Positions 1,876 to 61,122 of a stretch of 64,000 nt of DNA are shown one piece after another. The position numbers and the translations under genes were made by a program. The first letter of the stretch is position 1. Every line of letters begins with the position of its first letter. The DNA lies in sequence record ON184125; one strand, given 5' to 3'. The notes under the pieces are model-generated. The model did no database searches. It was given only the letters and a program-made list of their open reading frames with translations, and was not told the DNA's origin. Source of the stretch: Escherichia phage PC3.

Positions 1876-1883
1876 AAGAACAT

Positions 1884-1920
1884 TTCAATAACGGGGCGAG
1901 AGGTATTATTGCCCCGTCTA
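1884..1920. repeat. Copy 1 of a ~37-bp stem-loop element (ttcaataacggggcgagaggtattattgccccgtcta)
   Basis: GC stem acggggc/gccccgt with 13-nt loop; near-identical copy at 2145-2181; positions approximate. Confidence 0.5.
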
Positions 1921-1938
1921 TTAATCGAGGAAATCGCA

Positions 1939-3130: not shown

Positions 3131-3141
3131 ATTTTAAATTT

Positions 3142-3240
3142 ATTCAATAAACGGGGTTTAATTCTTCAATAAACCCCGTATACTTCATTCCATAAGCAGC
3201 ACAACACTGACTTGAAATGAAGGAACTATCACCACTCTCG
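3142..3240 (+). promoter_or_regulatory. Conserved intergenic element, copy A (stem-loop plus ~50-nt block tatacttcattccataagcag...acttgaa..ggaactat)
   Basis: Near-identical block recurs at about 36690-36741 and partly at about 49100-49152; TTCTTCAATA box upstream of TATACT; positions approximate. Confidence 0.4.
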
Positions 3241-3331
3241 TTACAAAGTAACATTGCAGCAATTTGTTCTAAACCTTTGAACAGGGTGTGTTAACCACAT
3301 ACCCTATTCCCTACAAATAGAGGACTTTATC

Positions 3332-3652
3332 ATGGCTAACAGCATCCCGATTTTAGAAGCGGTCGTAAAAGAGAACCCTCGTGCGCGCAAATCACGTCGC
3401 CGCCTGACCACCAAACTGGATATTCTGAAACAGAAGTTCGGCGACCACAGCGTGTTCACTCGCATTCGCAATGCAATAAAGGAAGGGCGAACTGAGCTGG
3501 AGCTATATCGACCGAACGGTTCGACACGCGCGTATCAGACCACTGACGGCTTACTGGAACTGATCCGCCTGAGCGGGATGACGATCGAACCTCGTTCGTC
3601 AGGTACTCCTCTGTGCTCCCTGTACGTAATCGGCAATCTTGGGGCGCTGTGA
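3332..3652 (+). CDS. Hypothetical basic protein (106 aa)
   Basis: ORF with AGAGGA SD-like sequence; Arg/Lys-rich N-terminus. Confidence 0.5.
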   Translation: MANSIPILEAVVKENPRARKSRRRLTTKLDILKQKFGDHSVFTRIRNAIKEGRTELELYRPNGSTRAYQTTDGLLELIRLSGMTIEPRSSGTPLCSLYVIGNLGAL

Positions 3653-4290: not shown

Positions 4291-4294
4291 TCCC

Positions 4295-9399: not shown

Positions 9400-9529
9400 A
9401 TATTACTCTCGTGTGTTGGTTAACATGACATACATATTATTTCGCGTGCATGTTTAGACCAAATAAATTATTTTTGCTGTTGAATAAAAACTGCTTTCTT
9501 GTTGAACAATGGCGTGGTATTATACGAGT

Positions 9530-9630
9530 TGTGAGCGAAGCGAACAACGAGTATTTGTTTTATGAGCGAAGCGAATAGGATTAATAAAGATTATTATCTT
9601 TAATAAAGGTTATTATCTTTAATAAAGTCC
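9530..9630. repeat. Intergenic direct repeats (gagcgaagcgaa twice; ttaataaag / ttattatc tandem units)
   Basis: Short direct and tandem repeats in the AT-rich 360-bp gap upstream of gene 45; 20-bp atgagcgaagcgaataggat also occurs inverted near 52140-52159. Confidence 0.4.
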
Positions 9631-9759
9631 ATAAATGCCGAAGGCATTTATTAATAACGCGTAGCGCAATTTGCCACTTGTTCTATAAGCAAAACACAGC
9701 GATACTAGATTGCGTCAAACATGACTTGAACCCCCACTATATTTTGAGGATACATACAA

Positions 9760-12582: not shown

Positions 12583-12680
12583 TTCAAACTATTGTAAAAG
12601 GGGAATGAGTCATGGCGCGTAATACGCTAGACATATTGAATATTTCAGCAGTCAACGATGAGGCCAGCATCGTTGATTGT

Positions 12681-13076
12681 ATGGTTGAAGTTCAATTGAA
12701 CCAAGATCGGCCAGGTATATTCCTGGGGATCAAGGAAACACTGAGTCGAATTGGGGTAAACACGCGCCAAGAGCCGAATACTCTGTATCAGACTTGCCAT
12801 ATTCTTCATAAGTGTGGCAAGTATTATATCGTCCACTTTAAGCATCTATTTATGCTGGACGGGCATTACAACGGATTTAACCGCGAAGATGTCCTGAGGA
12901 TGAACCGAATCATCAAGCTGCTGGAGCAGTGGAACATGGTGAAGGTCATTCATCCTGAGCAGGTCACCGAAGCAGCCGATATGTCTCGCATTAAAGTGGT
13001 TAAACACGATCAGGTTCCTGAATGGAAACTGGTTCCAAAATACATCATCCGGCCTACGAAGGCAAAAAGCGAATAA
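12681..13076 (+). CDS. regA: Translational repressor RegA
   Basis: YQTCHILHKCGKYYIVHFK ... EWKLVPKYIIRP closely matches T4 RegA; start chosen by alignment, the upstream ATG at 12612 is an alternative. Confidence 0.7.
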   Translation: MVEVQLNQDRPGIFLGIKETLSRIGVNTRQEPNTLYQTCHILHKCGKYYIVHFKHLFMLDGHYNGFNREDVLRMNRIIKLLEQWNMVKVIHPEQVTEAADMSRIKVVKHDQVPEWKLVPKYIIRPTKAKSE

Positions 13077-13965: not shown

Positions 13966-13987
13966 GATATACAGTTATTCACTAAAC

Positions 13988-14016
13988 AACAGAGGCTATA
14001 ATGGCCTCTGTTTTCG
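13988..14016 (+). terminator. Rho-independent terminator
   Basis: acagaggc-tataat-ggcctctg stem-loop followed by TTTTCG. Confidence 0.7.
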
Positions 14017-15254: not shown

Positions 15255-15368
15255 AGATTCCCTTTACTTCGTTCTTCAATAACTCAATCCAGCGTATATT
15301 GACCTCACTTAAACGAAGCGCCCTGGCAAACGGGGCGCACATTTGAACTGAAACAGGAAGATTACATC

Positions 15369-22367: not shown

Positions 22368-22426
22368 TTCTATAACTTTGGGCGGGGTATGATTACCCCG
22401 TCTATTTGAAACCAAGAGACTATATC

Positions 22427-26820: not shown

Positions 26821-27099
26821 ATGAATCGTACTGAATTTGTTGCCCACATTGCTTCGACCCAGAATATCACCAAAGGCGAAGCGGAGAAAGTAGTGGCATC
26901 CTTTATCGACGGTGTTAAAACTGCAGTTGCTGCAGGCGCATCTGTACAGCTGGTTGGCTTCGGTGCGTTCGAAGTGAAACACCAAGAAGCGCGTGAAGGT
27001 CGCAACCCTCTGAACGGCCAGACCATTCAGATCGCGGCGAAAAACGTTGTGAAATTCAAAGTGGGCGAAGGTCTGAAGAACGCTGCCAACGGCAAGTAA
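26821..27099 (+). CDS. HU/IHF-family DNA-binding protein
   Basis: 92 aa with HU hallmarks: MNRTEF..., GFGAFEV, REGRNPLNGQTIQI arm, KFKVG. Confidence 0.85.
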   Translation: MNRTEFVAHIASTQNITKGEAEKVVASFIDGVKTAVAAGASVQLVGFGAFEVKHQEAREGRNPLNGQTIQIAAKNVVKFKVGEGLKNAANGK

Positions 27100-36634: not shown

Positions 36635-36639
36635 AAATA

Positions 36640-36741
36640 ATTCAATAAAAGGGGCAAACGCCCCTTTACTTCTTCAATATCCTTCCCTATACTTCATTCC
36701 ATAAGCAGTACGACACCAACTTGAATAGCAGGAACTATATC
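36640..36741 (+). promoter_or_regulatory. Conserved intergenic element, copy B (stem-loop plus ~50-nt block ending at start codon)
   Basis: ttcaataaaaggggcaaacgcccctt then TTCTTCAATA ... tatacttcattccataagcagtacgacaccaacttgaatagcaggaactatatcATG; copy A at 3142-3240. Confidence 0.4.
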
Positions 36742-37077
36742 ATGACACAACTCAAGAACTTCACTGCCGATGACATGTTTGCCTTCCAGGGTGCTGAGCA
36801 CTTTGCTGACGGCTCTGTACCTCGCATCTACTACTTCTCCGACGAAGAAATGGAAGATTTCTTCTCCCTGATGGAAAAGGACTACGAACCAGACGACTTC
36901 GTTTATATCATCCATCACGCTGAAGGACTGACATTGGGTTGGACGGCCAACAACGAACCAGAAGAAGTAAACTTTCCTGAAGGTATCATGTCAGAGCGCG
37001 TCGAATATCTACTGGAAGCTCTGGACCCCCACACCCTCCCGCTCTGGGCGATGTCTGTAGCCCAAGTTCAAAAATAA
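36742..37077 (+). CDS. Hypothetical acidic protein (111 aa)
   Basis: ORF 36721-37077 trimmed to ctatatcATG; strongly Asp/Glu-rich. Confidence 0.5.
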   Translation: MTQLKNFTADDMFAFQGAEHFADGSVPRIYYFSDEEMEDFFSLMEKDYEPDDFVYIIHHAEGLTLGWTANNEPEEVNFPEGIMSERVEYLLEALDPHTLPLWAMSVAQVQK

Positions 37078-41942: not shown

Positions 41943-42085
41943 AATACTTCAAAAATAATTTTTTAAAAATTATTGAAAAAGACTTTACTCTTCAATAATG
42001 ATGCACTATTATAGTTCACATAGGGCGGCAACACACCGCCGAATGAAAAGTGAAACGCACCAACTACATTATGAGGAATTACATC

Positions 42086-49053: not shown

Positions 49054-49084
49054 AAAGCCCCTCAATGAGGGGCTTTACTTTTGA
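49054..49084 (+). terminator. Rho-independent terminator
   Basis: aaagcccctc-aatg-aggggcttt stem-loop followed by ACTTTTG. Confidence 0.7.
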
Positions 49085-49152
49085 AACACCCTCCACTATA
49101 CTTCCCAGTAATTCATTGGCATTCGCCACAAATTGAAAGCGGGAACTATATC

Positions 49153-49614
49153 ATGACAAACAAAGTACTCACCAACCCACTGCACAACTTCGGTTACATT
49201 CAACTCCCTCTGGTGATCGACACCCTGTACGCCGACGACAAAGAAGAGATCTGCTGGTCACCCACCGCACTGATTGAACGCGAAATCTTCAAGTCTGTTG
49301 TTGATGTCATGTTCCGTATCGGTCGCAATGGACCTCTGGTCTACCTCGGCAAGGTGACTGAGTTGAAGACAAGCCACAACGAACGCTTCCTTCGTATCGA
49401 TACAACGGGGTGCTCTCATCAGGACTTCAACACATTGCGCAATTATGTTCTGGTCAACCGCCCGGTCAGTCAACACCGCCCGTATCTGACTTCAATGCAC
49501 ATCGACAATTTCATCACCGACGTGCACCTCCGCGCCGAAACCCTCCATGAAGAGGAAACAGGCCGAGCTATCGACACAGTCTTAAATATGGTTGTGATCA
49601 CCCTGGCGGAGTAG
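49153..49614 (+). CDS. Hypothetical protein (153 aa)
   Basis: ORF 49081-49614 trimmed to ggaactatatcATG (partial copy of conserved element). Confidence 0.45.
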   Translation: MTNKVLTNPLHNFGYIQLPLVIDTLYADDKEEICWSPTALIEREIFKSVVDVMFRIGRNGPLVYLGKVTELKTSHNERFLRIDTTGCSHQDFNTLRNYVLVNRPVSQHRPYLTSMHIDNFITDVHLRAETLHEEETGRAIDTVLNMVVITLAE

Positions 49615-50420: not shown

Positions 50421-52031
50421 TTACTCTTTGGTGCCGAAATTACCACCATTGTCTTTTAATTCTGCCTTGATGTCAATCTCACCCGGACCCGTAGGGGATG
50501 CAGGGGTTGCACCTGACAGAGAAGAAGCGCGACCAGCACCTTCGGCATATATGATGTTACCATTGATCGTCTGAGCGACAGTCAGTTTGTCAGCGATTAT
50601 CTCAGTCGTTAGAATCTTAGGAACCTTCAATGTCCCACCGACCTCCAGAGTCTCGCAGATAATGCGCAGAATATTCTGCGCTTGCATTTCCGCCAAGTCA
50701 CTGAATTTCATCAGCGCTGTGCCCGCAACCACGTTGGAGTAATTGTTGGAATGCAAATGATAGACCTCACCTGTCTTGCGCTGAACTTCAGTTCCTTTGA
50801 CCGTCAGGTTGTGGTCCCCGCCGACATAATAACGCTTGTTGAACATCGTCAGGTCATAGTGGTCTTTGACGGACTTGTTGACCACATCACCATCCGGCAA
50901 CATTTGCTTGTAAGACCCAGACTTATGCATCCAGTGAAGACGTTCACCACCAGGGGTGTCATCCACTTCCATAATATGCCCAGCTCGGGACACCATGACG
51001 TTATTGTACGGGTATTTGGAGCCACCCGCAGCCGGAACCATGGTTTCTCCAGTGTTGTCAATATCCTGTACTCGCCCAGTAGGAGCCGGAGTCGGTTGTT
51101 CCTTTGGAGTACGATCTGGGATAGGTTCTGACCATTTACCATTCTGCTGCGCAGGCACGGCTGTGGCTGTGTTAGCAGGACCAGGCCAACGATATCCCAA
51201 GACCGAAGAACGTCTGAAACGACTGACCTTCACTGAATCGGATTGGTTGCCACCAATACACCAGACATAGTTTGCATCGAACTTCTGCACAAACGCTACG
51301 TGTCCAAATGTAGGGTTGTTACCACGCCGGAAGACTACGATAGCGCCATATTGTGGTGCTGACAGTGGAGTGCCCCATGTAAGGTAAGATCGGGCAAGAG
51401 CGGAGCGTGTAGACGTATATCCAGCCTGTATCATAACCCAACCCACGAACGCCGCACACCACGACACTTCATCTTCAGAAGCACCAAGGGAGGTTGTCTT
51501 GTGATATTCTATAATGCGCGGGTTGTTGTTGAACTTTCCAGCATACTCCTTGATACCTAATTCGCCACGAGCGATTGTCATCCACTTCTCTGGATCATAC
51601 CCGCCAACAGGTGGTTGTGGATCTGGTTGTGGTTCGTCTTCTTGTTTCACAGGAACGTCAGTGACGGCGTTGTACGCCTGACGTTCCACAGATTGAACGA
51701 CCTGCCCGAGAGCCAGTGGGTTTGTGTCGGCACCATCAGTAGGGCTTGAACCAGTCCAAGTCCAGGTGATGCGTAAATTCTGGTATGCTTCGTCAAGGGC
51801 GAACCCCATAACCTCAGTGCCAGGAATGATACCCGTCGGAGACCAACCTAAACCAGCAGAAGAGGCGTTTGAAGCAGGCATCAGTACCTTCGCCCATGGG
51901 AGTTTGTCCGTAGGCAGGAGGACGGGATCGTCGGTGTGTACGCCATAGATGCGGACGGCGACGCGCCCGTTTTGGTCTGGATCGTTGACATCTTCAACGG
52001 TGCCGTAAAACCATCTCATATTGTCTAACAT
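50421..52031 (-). CDS. Baseplate hub/central spike protein (gp5-like) with CHAP peptidoglycan-hydrolase domain
   Basis: N-terminal WFYGTVEDVNDPDQNGRVAVRIYGVH OB-fold like gp5; central CHAP-like Cys (WCAAFVGW) and His (GHVAFV); Gly-rich C-terminus. Confidence 0.6.
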   Translation of the reverse strand: MLDNMRWFYGTVEDVNDPDQNGRVAVRIYGVHTDDPVLLPTDKLPWAKVLMPASNASSAGLGWSPTGIIPGTEVMGFALDEAYQNLRITWTWTGSSPTDGADTNPLALGQVVQSVERQAYNAVTDVPVKQEDEPQPDPQPPVGGYDPEKWMTIARGELGIKEYAGKFNNNPRIIEYHKTTSLGASEDEVSWCAAFVGWVMIQAGYTSTRSALARSYLTWGTPLSAPQYGAIVVFRRGNNPTFGHVAFVQKFDANYVWCIGGNQSDSVKVSRFRRSSVLGYRWPGPANTATAVPAQQNGKWSEPIPDRTPKEQPTPAPTGRVQDIDNTGETMVPAAGGSKYPYNNVMVSRAGHIMEVDDTPGGERLHWMHKSGSYKQMLPDGDVVNKSVKDHYDLTMFNKRYYVGGDHNLTVKGTEVQRKTGEVYHLHSNNYSNVVAGTALMKFSDLAEMQAQNILRIICETLEVGGTLKVPKILTTEIIADKLTVAQTINGNIIYAEGAGRASSLSGATPASPTGPGEIDIKAELKDNGGNFGTKE

Positions 52032-52365
52032 ATTGAATTCCGGTTGTCAAACAAGGATTTGAAGGTATTTATGCGCAGCTGATTTTGCCTTATATACTAT
52101 AGGAAGCTCTGCTTCCGTTCATTTTATTTGTTTTATTCGATCCTATTCGCTTCGCTCATCAAACCGCCCTATGCGGGCAGCACCATTCCAATGCCATGGA
52201 GGCATAAGGGCGAGGCAATAACTGTACACCCCAGAACACTCCTTGAAAAATGGTATTTTACTGACAATCTGATTCAAAACAGACAAACACCAACAAATAA
52301 CTCGGGAATAAGCCCATTATAGCAATTTCAGGTAAAGAAAGTTCGTGTTAACCGATTTTACAGTT

Positions 52366-52396
52366 AAGCCAATAAAAATCCCGCCGAAGCGGGATT
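52366..52396 (-). terminator. Rho-independent terminator (minus strand)
   Basis: aatcccgc-ttcg-gcgggatt stem followed on minus strand by TTTTTATT; downstream of minus gene ending at 52544. Confidence 0.6.
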
Positions 52397-56063: not shown

Positions 56064-56162
56064 TTCAATGTAAGATCGGGGTATAATTACCCCGCTTTGT
56101 AGAAAACTGAAAATACATGTAACAGAATAGCCCTGAGGGGCGGAAACATAGGAAATTAAGAA

Positions 56163-61047: not shown

Positions 61048-61122
61048 ATTTAAGTTCAGAAACTGTTCAATAGATGAAGGGGTTGCTATAATAGCAGCTC
61101 CTTTTGTTTATCGGAGCAGTTT

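Follow-up and report, generated by a model that had tools for sequence, protein, structure and literature searches.

The repeated block that the original prediction singled out in PH4, an Escherichia phage of the Ackermannviridae (Aglimvirinae) that is distantly related to T4, is part of a composite cassette and no free-standing element. Its three copies in the window, the 64,000-nt stretch of PH4 DNA analyzed here, are referred to as A, B and C, and they probably represent a multi-copy regulatory cassette of Ackermannviridae that joins an early sigma70 promoter and a leader to swapped cargo genes, much like the promoter-early stem-loop (PeSL) cassettes of the T4-type phages RB49/phi1, T4/PST and KVP40/nt-1 (Arbiol et al. 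2010, PMC2839356; Comeau et al. 2014, PMC4122927). The block itself is a -10 box followed by a G-poor, unstructured 5' leader of ~41-50 nt and an AGGA...CTATATCATG start region, and upstream of it lie a GGGG/CCCC hairpin and the T4-type, sigma70-like promoter TTTACT-N16/17-TATACT, which together form intergenic units of 99-107 nt. Both the early timing and the sigma70 dependence of the cassette are inferred from its sequence.

Copies of the cassette and their anatomy

The claim that a near-identical block recurs 33 kb apart is borne out by the alignment of copy A (3176-3229) with copy B (36685-36738), which share 54 nt at 85% identity (family D4). The 21-mer TATACTTCATTCCATAAGCAG has two exact occurrences in the window, at 3179 and 36688 and both on the plus strand, compared to an average of 0.01 matches in shuffles, of which not one in 100 reached two. 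A profile search of the whole PH4 genome at E <= 1e-18 recovered five full cassettes, two of them beyond the window (genome positions 23621 and 143495), and four were recovered in CBA120. The 3' start-region module by itself is found at many more PH4 gene starts than the full cassette. All features described below are on the plus strand.

Copy A begins with an AT-rich region in the position of an UP element (3133-3150), which may function as one and which carries an upstream TTCAATAA box at 3143-3150. The hairpin that follows (3151-3179; ACGGGGTTTA, a 9-nt loop and TAAACCCCGT) encloses the -35 and the spacer, has a folding energy of -14.2 kcal/mol (z -4.72, with 0/200 shuffles folding equally well) and is kept in Ag3, CBA120 and Madison. 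Since there is no U-tract behind it, a role as terminator is doubtful. The -35-like hexamer (3157-3162) stands 16 bp from the -10 and reads TTTAAT in PH4 and RPN242 and TTTACT in Ag3, CBA120, Madison, AV101 and fGh-Ecl02, and it is this C-to-A change that causes the promoter scanner to miss copy A of PH4. Within the spacer, 6 nt before the -10, lies a second TTCAATAA box (3165-3172), which the original prediction gave as the TTCTTCAATA box (3162-3171), 7 nt before TATACT. The -10 box TATACT, a sequence match, is at 3179-3184, and the standard -10 to +1 spacing predicts that transcription would start at ~3191-3192. The conserved leader (3185-3229) has the Shine-Dalgarno sequence AAGGA at 3220-3224 and ends in ...GGAACTAT, after which the relatives read on into ATCATG; from stop codon to ATG the region is 97% identical to that of CBA120. 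A conserved upstream small ORF was considered and rejected: A-type cassettes do have an ATG, in GAAATGAAGG, but not in frame, and B-type cassettes lack it.

As had been predicted, the next gene starts about 100 nt beyond copy A, the annotated start of ORF 3332 being 102 nt past the end of the block. From the alignments with relatives, this gap is a deleted gene and not a longer leader. Positions 3230-3261 are an internal fragment of a deleted ORF of the Ag3 orf178 type, left between a first deletion of 51 nt, which includes the ATG and is bounded by ACTAT repeats, and a second one bounded by ATTTGTT repeats (3262-3268); both deletions are also present in RPN242. The remainder (3262-3331) is the native upstream region of ORF 3332 and lines up collinearly with the spacer between orf178 and orf177 in Ag3. 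It contains TTCTAAAC (3267-3274), 12 nt, TGTGTT (3287-3292) and the Shine-Dalgarno sequence GAGGA, with TGTGTT, for which the relatives have TATGTT, located within a hairpin at 3283-3305. The first intact ORF past copy A (3332-3652, 106 aa) is the orthologue of Ag3 orf177 and CBA120 orf175, with 80% DNA identity to the latter. Copy A of PH4 thus appears to have had its own cargo gene destroyed by the two short-repeat deletions, that is by way of 5-7-nt microhomologies and without cassette-to-cassette recombination, and its promoter would now read across ~140 nt of debris into ORF 3332.

Copy B has an AT-rich region and a terminator-like hairpin at 36635-36667, with an upstream TTCAATAA box at 36641-36648. 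Its hairpin, AAAGGGGC-AAAC-GCCCCTTT (36648-36667; -13.6 kcal/mol, z -4.64), has a T-rich tail that doubles as the -35. The sigma70-type promoter (36665-36693) consists of TTTACT (36665-36670), a 17-nt spacer that holds TTCAATAT (36673-36680), and TATACT (36688-36693); it matches the consensus at 9/12 positions and was called by the promoter scanner. The TTCTTCAATA box is at 36670-36679, 8 nt before TATACT. As proposed, both A and B have a box and a GC stem-loop, and by its coordinates the stem-loop precedes or overlaps the box. The start of transcription is predicted at ~36700-36701. The leader (36694-36741), with AGGA at 36730-36733 and CTATATC ahead of the ATG, is unstructured (MFE -2.6 kcal/mol, z +0.59, open centroid) and runs, again as described originally, straight into the start codon of an acidic-protein gene (36742-37077, 111 aa, pI 4.1, phrog_9866). 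At the same locus CBA120 has an unrelated 91-aa ORF.

Copy C (49074-49155) confirms that a third, degenerate copy precedes ORF 49153, and it is a true but diverged member of the group. Its hairpin and promoter (49054-49102) were recovered by nhmmer at E 2.5e-19; the putative terminator hairpin AAAGCCCCT-CAATG-AGGGGCTTT (49054-49076) overlaps the -35 TTTACT (49074-49079), and a 17-nt spacer lacking the TTCTTCAATA box separates this from the -10 TATACT (49097-49102). In both B and C, TTTACTT directly follows the hairpin. Copy C is 68-77% identical to A and B overall, and what it has in common with them, TTTACT, TATACTTC and TTGAAAGCGGGAACTATATCATGAC, is limited to -35, -10 and ribosome-binding end. 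Its predicted start of transcription is at 49109-49111. The 5' half of its leader (49103-49152) has diverged, while TTGAAAGCGGGAACTATATC forms its 3' end, ahead of the start codon at 49153 (families D2 and D13), and the leader as a whole is 92% identical to its CBA120 orthologue. The cargo ORF (49153-49614, 153 aa, phrog_3902) has as its orthologue CBA120 orf095, where an extra 77-aa ORF (orf096) lies between the cassette and orf095. A more distant relative of the cassette at 41984-42085 (profile E 6e-4, and 6.6e-4 for its CBA120 orthologue) has TTTACT-N17-TATTAT with CTTCAATAA at the same spacer position, an inverted TTATTGAA upstream and a longer leader of ~70 nt that contains a hairpin.

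If these parts work as their sequences suggest, the GGGG/CCCC hairpin would end the upstream transcription unit, its T-tail serving as the -35 in B and C. The T4-type host sigma70 promoter, TTTACT-N16/17-TATA(C/A)T, would be fired by unmodified host RNA polymerase immediately post infection, and the open leader with its well-spaced Shine-Dalgarno sequence would lead to strong translation of the single small gene directly behind the cassette.

The spacer box and the translation start region

One part of the original prediction, that the element does not have sigma70 spacing, is wrong, because the TTCTTCAATA box sits inside the spacer of a TTTACT/TATACT promoter. A -35-like TTTACT is found 17 bp (B and C) or 16 bp (A, with the weaker TTTAAT in PH4) upstream of TATACT, which is within the 16-18 bp range of sigma70 promoters. 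The cassette -35 matches TTGACA at only four of six positions and none of the cassette promoters has a TGn extended -10. Within the spacer, conservation is restricted to the initial 10 nt (TCTTCAATAA) and the remainder varies, a pattern that a plain sigma70 promoter does not explain. The box may be a putative site for a phage or host factor.

The word contained in the box is not confined to the cassettes. TTCAATA[AT] occurs 43 times in the PH4 genome compared to ~11 expected, and the TTCAATAA box keeps to two sharply defined spacings from -10 boxes. In the cassettes it ends 6-7 nt before the -10, and in a separate set of eight sites it stands exactly 12 nt before TATAAT-like boxes that have no -35, compared to 0.1 such sites expected. 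The latter arrangement is that of the Viunalikevirus motif TTCAAT[N14]TATAAT, as quoted in PMC7283392, which occurs in the window at 1884, 2145 and 15275, for example, with the box 12 nt before the -10 and no -35. At such sites in the window the -10 is often in a hairpin loop. The elements at 1883 and 2144 are 92% identical to each other and flank an ORF at 1939-2139. The box of T4 middle promoters and of the nt-1 PmSLs, the MotA box, is positioned 12 +/- 1 bp from the -10. Although the cassettes carry the same TTCAATAA word, in them the box is 6-7 nt from the -10, within a normal sigma70 spacer and with a -35 present, and therefore they neither belong to the published motif nor show the geometry of a MotA box.

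Two readings of the box as the site of a factor can be considered. First, the TTCAATAA sequence could be the operator of a factor, from the phage or the host, that switches Ackermannviridae from early to middle transcription, a candidate role that we consider unlikely on balance. At some 8-12 sites in each genome, where exactly 12 bp separate the box from a good -10 that has no -35, it would replace the missing hexamer in a MotA-like manner. In the cassettes, where the box lies in the spacer 6-7 bp from the -10 and often has a partner, inverted or direct, on the other side of the -35, it would let the same factor turn off the early promoters, so that one 8-mer in two phasings would mean "early off" and "middle on". 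Second, the TTCTTCAATA/TTCAATAA box and TATACT together could be read by a phage factor, either a MotA-like activator or an alternative sigma, which would make the cassette promoters a phage-specific class as first proposed. The enrichment of the word, the MotA-box geometry of the sites without a -35 and the prior publication of the genus-specific motif are all consistent with this second reading, as are the retention of the box in four of the five PH4 cassettes, next to a variable 3' half of the spacer, and the pairing of boxes on either side of the -35, either inverted (TTATTGAA...TTCAATAA) or directly repeated. We nevertheless regard it as quite unlikely. The cassette box is about half a helical turn closer to the -10 than the box at the N12 sites and cannot hold the same position relative to the polymerase, and a good TTTACT at the canonical 16-17 bp is present in every cassette. 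The box is missing from copy C and from its orthologue in CBA120, both of which retain TTTACT-N17-TATACT and the leader. Furthermore, the Ackermannviridae are reported to lack homologues of MotA and AsiA (Kutter et al. 2011), and Pfam scans of the genes annotated as "transcription factor" or "regulator" returned HU, RegA, DUF5856, a sub-threshold DUF4078, or nothing. A literature search found no transcription-start or RNA-seq studies of Ackermannviridae phages.

The other end of the cassette is a fixed translation start region, TTGAA..(A)GGAACTAYATC-ATG-AC, and here a post-transcriptional reading has to be weighed. T4 RegA binds sites overlapping the AUG of many early mRNAs, and the 3' module (UUGAA..GGAACUAUAUCAUGAC) could likewise be the operator of a RegA-type repressor, of another RNA-binding protein or of a nuclease, through which early messages would be switched off together; this is compatible with the promoter reading. 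PH4 has a RegA homologue at 12612-13076 (PF01818, E 2e-34). The sequence TAYATYATG marks the start of 20 PH4 ORFs with a length of 40 aa or more, and ~18 of these starts belong to annotated genes; shuffles give 5.5 occurrences over the genome as a whole. The module is common to the cassettes and the class-I promoters, and its conservation runs into codon 2 (ATG-AC). However, the start region of regA itself (GGGGAATGAGTCATG) is without the motif, although T4 regA is autoregulated, and for this reason we keep a RegA operator as a minor and rather improbable rival only. The starts of genes 45 and 44, classic T4 RegA targets, are also without the motif, which is not AU-rich, unlike known RegA sites, and such an operator would leave the conserved 5' half of the leader and the promoter unexplained.

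Conservation of the cassette and turnover of its cargo

As the original prediction required, the motif is clearly conserved in related phages: BLAST found the cassette in 275 Ackermannviridae records at 658 places. PH4 and CBA120 are from different subfamilies, and between them the cassettes are 97, 89, 92 and 100% identical compared to 84, 80, 78, 79 and 87% for flanking coding sequences, so the cassette is better conserved than the adjacent coding DNA. This degree of conservation supports the view that the element is a promoter with a conserved 5' leader, as far as sequence comparison can indicate. No match to the cassette was found by blastn in 5,426 complete E. coli genomes, which rules out a host origin or the mimicry of an E. 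coli leader. A scan of IMG/VR with the exact 15-mer TTTACTTCTTCAATA is left out of these counts; among the matches listed, most looked, from the sizes of their contigs, like chance occurrences in unrelated contigs and only two contigs were of Ackermannviridae size.

The genes behind the cassettes, in contrast, change. The first ORF is different or absent at every locus compared, and it differs between PH4 and CBA120 at all four shared loci, the B and D loci among them. The A locus exists in four states across the relatives: the ORFs of Ag3, CBA120 and Madison have no mutual similarity, and AV101 and fGh-Ecl02 have yet another mosaic ORF. Ten cargo ORFs belong to ten PHROG families, and the possibility that they are paralogues was rejected by both BLASTP and PHROGs. 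The cassette at 23.6 kb in PH4 (PH4-E) is inserted together with its ORF in the tail gene block and is absent from CBA120.

The cassettes themselves bear the marks of exchange. Copy B is of the A type at 21/21 positions over 36688-36708 and of the type of CBA120-B and PH4-E at 21 of the following 22, and by these matches it is a chimera of two cassette types. The B cassette of CBA120 is 94% identical to the non-orthologous PH4-E, and only 85% to copy B of PH4. One could thus suppose that a recent duplication or gene conversion within PH4 left the repeats alike, neutrally and without a function of their own, and the visibly recombinant copy B, with its 5' half identical to copy A, fits such a history. 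This is highly improbable, as orthologous cassettes have stayed more alike than coding DNA in four genera from two subfamilies, and the recombinant B type is common to Ag3 and Dickeya phages, and is therefore old and maintained. We propose instead that the two sites 33 kb apart are nearly identical because recombination between copies, together with functional constraint, keeps the cassettes alike. The cassettes would then act both as portable expression units and as homology patches around which small accessory genes are swapped. It is hardly credible that the block works as an RNA, structured or in trans (a small RNA, riboswitch-like leader or RNA thermometer), since the high conservation of a transcribed non-coding stretch is all that speaks for it, while shuffles fold at least as well as the leaders (z +0.59, +0.34 and +0.18, with an open centroid), no Rfam family passes its gathering threshold in the whole window, the variable positions (C/T, A/G, TG/CA) form no compensatory pairs, and a start codon always terminates the block except where the gene has been deleted.

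Relation to known systems and significance

The conserved cassette, the changing gene behind it and the recombinant copy B together amount to PeSL-like behaviour. PeSLs have an AT-rich region at the 5' end and a Shine-Dalgarno sequence with the start codon at the 3' end (PMC4122927, Fig. 3 legend), and the cassette has the same order of parts over ~100 bp: AT-rich region, GGGG...CCCC stem-loop, -35/-10 and Shine-Dalgarno/ATG. Its promoter is almost that of the T4/PST consensus, TTTACW-N17-TAYWAT (PMC4122927). As with PeSLs, there are several near-identical copies per genome, chimeric cassettes are present (copy B), and the adjoining small ORFs are inserted, deleted or replaced between relatives. 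In reporter assays PeSL stem-loops act as effective terminators and PeSL promoters are strong. There are also differences. About five dispersed copies are found here rather than dense arrays, and the flanking-pair arrangement that yields mini-circles from PeSLs is not seen for the Ackermannviridae cassette type. The ~45-nt transcribed leader is itself highly conserved, an extra conserved TTCAATAA box is present in the spacer, and the hairpin of copy A wraps the -35, whereas the PeSL hairpin precedes it. Finally, PeSLs come from Straboviridae/Tevenvirinae; as PH4 lies outside Tevenvirinae, we file the cassette as PeSL-like in a new family. In the papers searched, the term PeSL was not found to co-occur with any Ackermannviridae name.

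Two other systems are worth comparing. T4 early promoters carry UP elements (Hinton 2010, PMC2988021), and the cassette resembles them in its AT-rich region at the UP position, its -35/-10 and its association with small, presumably pre-replicative genes, the use of sigma70 being inferred here; it differs in the lack of a TGn extended -10 and in having TATACT rather than TATAAT. Lambdoid morons are likewise single accessory ORFs bracketed by their own promoter and terminator, as predicted for the 23.6-kb cassette of PH4, but they have no shared conserved flank, and in the cassettes it is the regulatory flank that is conserved and repeated.

Early promoters of CBA120 could not be identified by informatics, and the early and middle control of ViI-like phages was described as unknown (Kutter et al. 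2011); a 2024 review of the Ackermannviridae never uses the words promoter or transcription. The present analysis provides a set of candidate early promoters with predicted starts, five in PH4 and four in CBA120, that is cleanly separated from the published TTCAAT-N14-TATAAT class. A specialist in phage transcription would find none of these findings surprising. For phage engineering, the cassettes would offer ready-made portable expression units and natural insertion sites. The ORFs they would drive can be flagged as fast-evolving early cargo of the Ackermannviridae. None of them has a known function and one encodes a strongly acidic protein, which makes a part in host takeover or anti-defence plausible. 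More broadly, the cassettes suggest that PeSL-style shuffling of small accessory genes reaches beyond the T4 subfamily.

Anatomy of the repeated element

By megablast the window equals positions 32001-96000 of Escherichia phage PH4 (ON184126.1; Ackermannviridae, Aglimvirinae) at 100% identity. It is the mostly rightward-transcribed half of that genome, with replication and nucleotide metabolism genes and numerous small hypothetical ORFs. The repeat within it is real, and its sequence at copies A, B and C is as the original prediction had described: the 21-mer TATACTTCATTCCATAAGCAG occurs in the window only at 3179 and 36688 (expectation 0.01), and copies A and B (3176-3229 and 36685-36738) form a 54-nt repeat of 85% identity (repeat family D4). 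The TTCTTCAATA box lies at 3162 in copy A and 36670 in copy B, the GC hairpins are significant at both (3151-3179, z -4.7; 36648-36667, z -4.6), and copy B adjoins the ATG of a gene for an acidic protein (111 aa, pI 4.1). The third, degenerate copy is likewise present: copy C (49074-49155) has nothing more in common with the others than the -35, TATACTTC and the final ~25 nt before the ATG.

While the observation itself is confirmed, its interpretation was only partly right. The promoter had been read as lacking sigma70 spacing, which is incorrect because the TTCTTCAATA box sits inside the promoter spacer: in copies B and C TTTACT precedes TATACT by 17 bp, and the spacing in copy A is 16 bp. 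The copy A -35 is TTTAAT in PH4 and its close relative RPN242, and TTTACT in Ag3, CBA120, Madison, AV101 and fGh-Ecl02; at copy B, TTTACT-17-TATACT is also called by a promoter scanner. This layout matches the published promoter consensus of the T4/PST promoter-early stem-loop (PeSL) cassettes, TTTACW-N17-TAYWAT (PMC4122927), and the "conserved 50-nt element" therefore begins at the -10 box. From there it is predicted to run through the initially transcribed region and a short 5' UTR to an AGGA Shine-Dalgarno sequence, which 8 nt separate from the ATG. Folding shows the UTR to be unstructured (MFE -2.6 kcal/mol, z +0.59, open centroid), and Rfam gave no match at the gathering threshold anywhere in the window.

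Conserved cassettes with changing cargo

A profile built from the copies found five full cassettes (AT-rich stretch, GGGG/CCCC hairpin, promoter, leader and start region) in PH4, at genome positions 23621, 35132 (copy A), 68633 (copy B), 81050 (copy C) and 143495, and four in CBA120. The motif is conserved in relatives, with the copy B unit found by BLAST at 658 places in 275 phage records, all of Ackermannviridae type, and in none of 5,426 complete E. coli genomes. PH4 and CBA120 are members of different subfamilies; their cassettes are 97, 89, 92 and 100% identical compared to 78-87% for adjacent coding sequences, so that the non-coding cassette is more strongly constrained than the surrounding genes.

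The first ORF behind the cassette, its cargo, varies. At the A locus, no similarity is detectable among the ORFs of Ag3 (93 aa), CBA120 (154 aa) and Madison (99 aa), the 109-aa ORF of AV101 and fGh-Ecl02 is related to that of CBA120 only in its C-terminal 56 residues, and PH4 and RPN242 are in a deletion state. The PH4 and CBA120 ORFs are unrelated at the B and D loci, and at the C locus an additional 77-aa ORF separates the orthologue of the PH4 gene from the cassette in CBA120. Of ten cargo ORFs no two share a PHROG family, and none has a known function. The acidic copy B ORF (36742-37077; 23 Asp+Glu versus 5 Lys+Arg) has no Pfam domain; among small acidic early proteins, some are DNA mimics or anti-restriction proteins. 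The PH4 23.6-kb cassette and its ORF lie within the tail-gene block, where CBA120 has no equivalent. This fifth cassette (genome 23621-24080, outside the window; L006) fronts a 118-aa basic ORF (phrog_13016), flanked by the tail tube gene and by a conserved 631-aa ORF at the position of the CBA120 tail sheath gene, and adjoins a homing endonuclease; it is a moron-like insertion that places a predicted early-type promoter inside a late gene block.

In copy A, ORF 3332 had been noted to start only about 100 nt past the block. The gap exists, but it is the remains of a deleted gene. In Ag3 (Shigella), CBA120 (E. coli) and Madison (Klebsiella) the orthologous element continues directly into ...GGAACTAYATCATG and a small ORF, and in the PH4/Ag3 alignment 3230-3261 is a stretch from the interior of Ag3 orf178, and 3262-3331 is the normal spacer preceding the next gene. 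Two deletions took away the remainder of the orf178-type gene, one of 51 nt, ATG included, between ACTAT repeats and a larger one between ATTTGTT repeats; RPN242 has both, together with the TTTAAT change. Copy A is thus a cassette deprived of its cargo, not one with an extended leader. The element upstream of ORF 3332 itself has a -10-like box without its key A in PH4 (TGTGTT at 3287-3292, versus TATGTT in RPN242, Ag3, AV101 and fGh-Ecl02), its hairpin being retained via a G-U pair. Along with the weaker copy A -35, this suggests that regulation has drifted since the gene was deleted.

Cassettes also exchange parts. At 94% identity, the cassette at the CBA120 B locus is closer to the non-orthologous PH4 23.6-kb cassette than to PH4 copy B (only 85%). 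Copy B is of A type at 21/21 positions from the -10 through AAGCAG and of CBA120-B type at 21 of the following 22 nt. It is thus a chimera of two cassette types, which is directly why copies A and B look near-identical.

Box phasing and the start region

Four of the five PH4 cassettes have a conserved 10-nt stretch, TCTTCAATAA, at the start of the spacer, the remainder of which is variable. The box core TTCAATA[AT] occurs 43 times in the genome, where ~11 are expected, and its distances to good -10 boxes fall into two sharp classes. Six sites lie at 6-8 nt, comprising four full cassettes, a diverged one (window 41984) and one probable chance match, and eight exact-box sites, all without a -35, lie at 12 nt (expectation 0.1 per distance). 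The 12-nt sites correspond to the Viunalikevirus motif TTCAAT[N14]TATAAT, as quoted in PMC7283392, and are spaced like the T4 MotA box (PMC2988021); according to the CBA120 paper, no MotA or AsiA is known in Ackermannviridae. They belong to a second promoter-like class, which has TTCAATAA (or TTCTATAA, TTCACTAA) exactly 12 nt 5' of a TATAAT-like box and no -35, at window 1883-1930, 2144-2191, 13980-14010, 15275-15300, 22368-22400, 56064-56095 and 61065-61095 and at genome 99301, 101870, 131193(-), 134029(-), 139129(-) and 151126(-). Its -10 is often within the loop of a GGGG/CCCC hairpin, and the elements at 1883 and 2144 (92% identical) flank unrelated small ORFs. Box enrichment, bimodal phasing, spacer conservation and the frequent pairing of boxes across the -35 suggest a box-binding factor that would act differently at the two promoter classes. 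However, copy C has promoter and leader without the box, and Pfam scans gave no candidate among the annotated regulators.

In a second, partial rival reading, the start region that the cassettes share, TTGAA..GGAACTAYATCATGAC, would serve as a translational operator. This module stands at the starts of 20 PH4 ORFs of at least 40 aa (~18 annotated gene starts) and the RegA homologue is a candidate binder, yet regA itself does not have the motif in its start region. The extended motif TAYATCATG is found at the starts of 20 PH4 and 22 CBA120 ORFs of at least 40 aa, compared to ~5-8 occurrences anywhere in the genome in shuffles, usually downstream of TTGAA-N6-9-GGA and in genes that are mostly first after a promoter; examples in the window are 2436, 4114, 15363, 22122, 22421, 25776, 29750, 36736, 42080 and 49147. 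The RegA homologue (12612-13076, labelled "translation repressor"; PF01818, E 2e-34) has ~23 extra N-terminal residues, and the ORF labelled "transcription factor" (26821-27099) belongs to the HU family of DNA-binding proteins (PF00216, E 6e-30).

Elsewhere in the window, the two largest intergenic regions (9400-9759 and 52020-52394) share GAGCGAAGCGAA, on the + strand at 9533 and 9564 and the - strand at 52146 (expected 0.28), and the former has a tandem AATAAAG(A/G)TTATTATCTTT repeat at ~9580-9625; the two could hold replication-origin or iteron-like sequences. CTAAATA(C/T)C-type motifs at 4294, 7491, 35297 and 43203 fit CTAAATAcCcc, the second published Viunalikevirus motif in what PMC7283392 quotes, and may be late-promoter candidates because several lie at a hairpin 5' arm just before a gene start.

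Relation to PeSL cassettes

In anatomy and behaviour the Ackermannviridae cassettes match the PeSLs of RB49/phi1, T4/PST and KVP40/nt-1, short composite terminator/promoter units ending in a Shine-Dalgarno sequence and ATG, with ~100 bp conserved, GGGG...CCCC stems, chimeric cassettes and an association with small-ORF gain and loss (PMC4122927). They differ in phage family, and the gene at PH4 copy A was lost by microhomology, not through paired cassettes. Early promoters could not be identified in the CBA120 paper, the LIMEstone paper gives five "putative early promoters" by T4 similarity without detail, and we found no paper linking PeSLs to Ackermannviridae. On these grounds the cassettes are best classed as PeSL-like. 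The box-phasing pattern is the sole lead that could gain in interest. Everything said here on cassette activity and timing is inferred from sequence. The feature itself is a genuine regulatory cassette, present throughout the family and under functional constraint; it most likely unites a sigma70-type early promoter with a translation leader, and it doubles as a recombination module.
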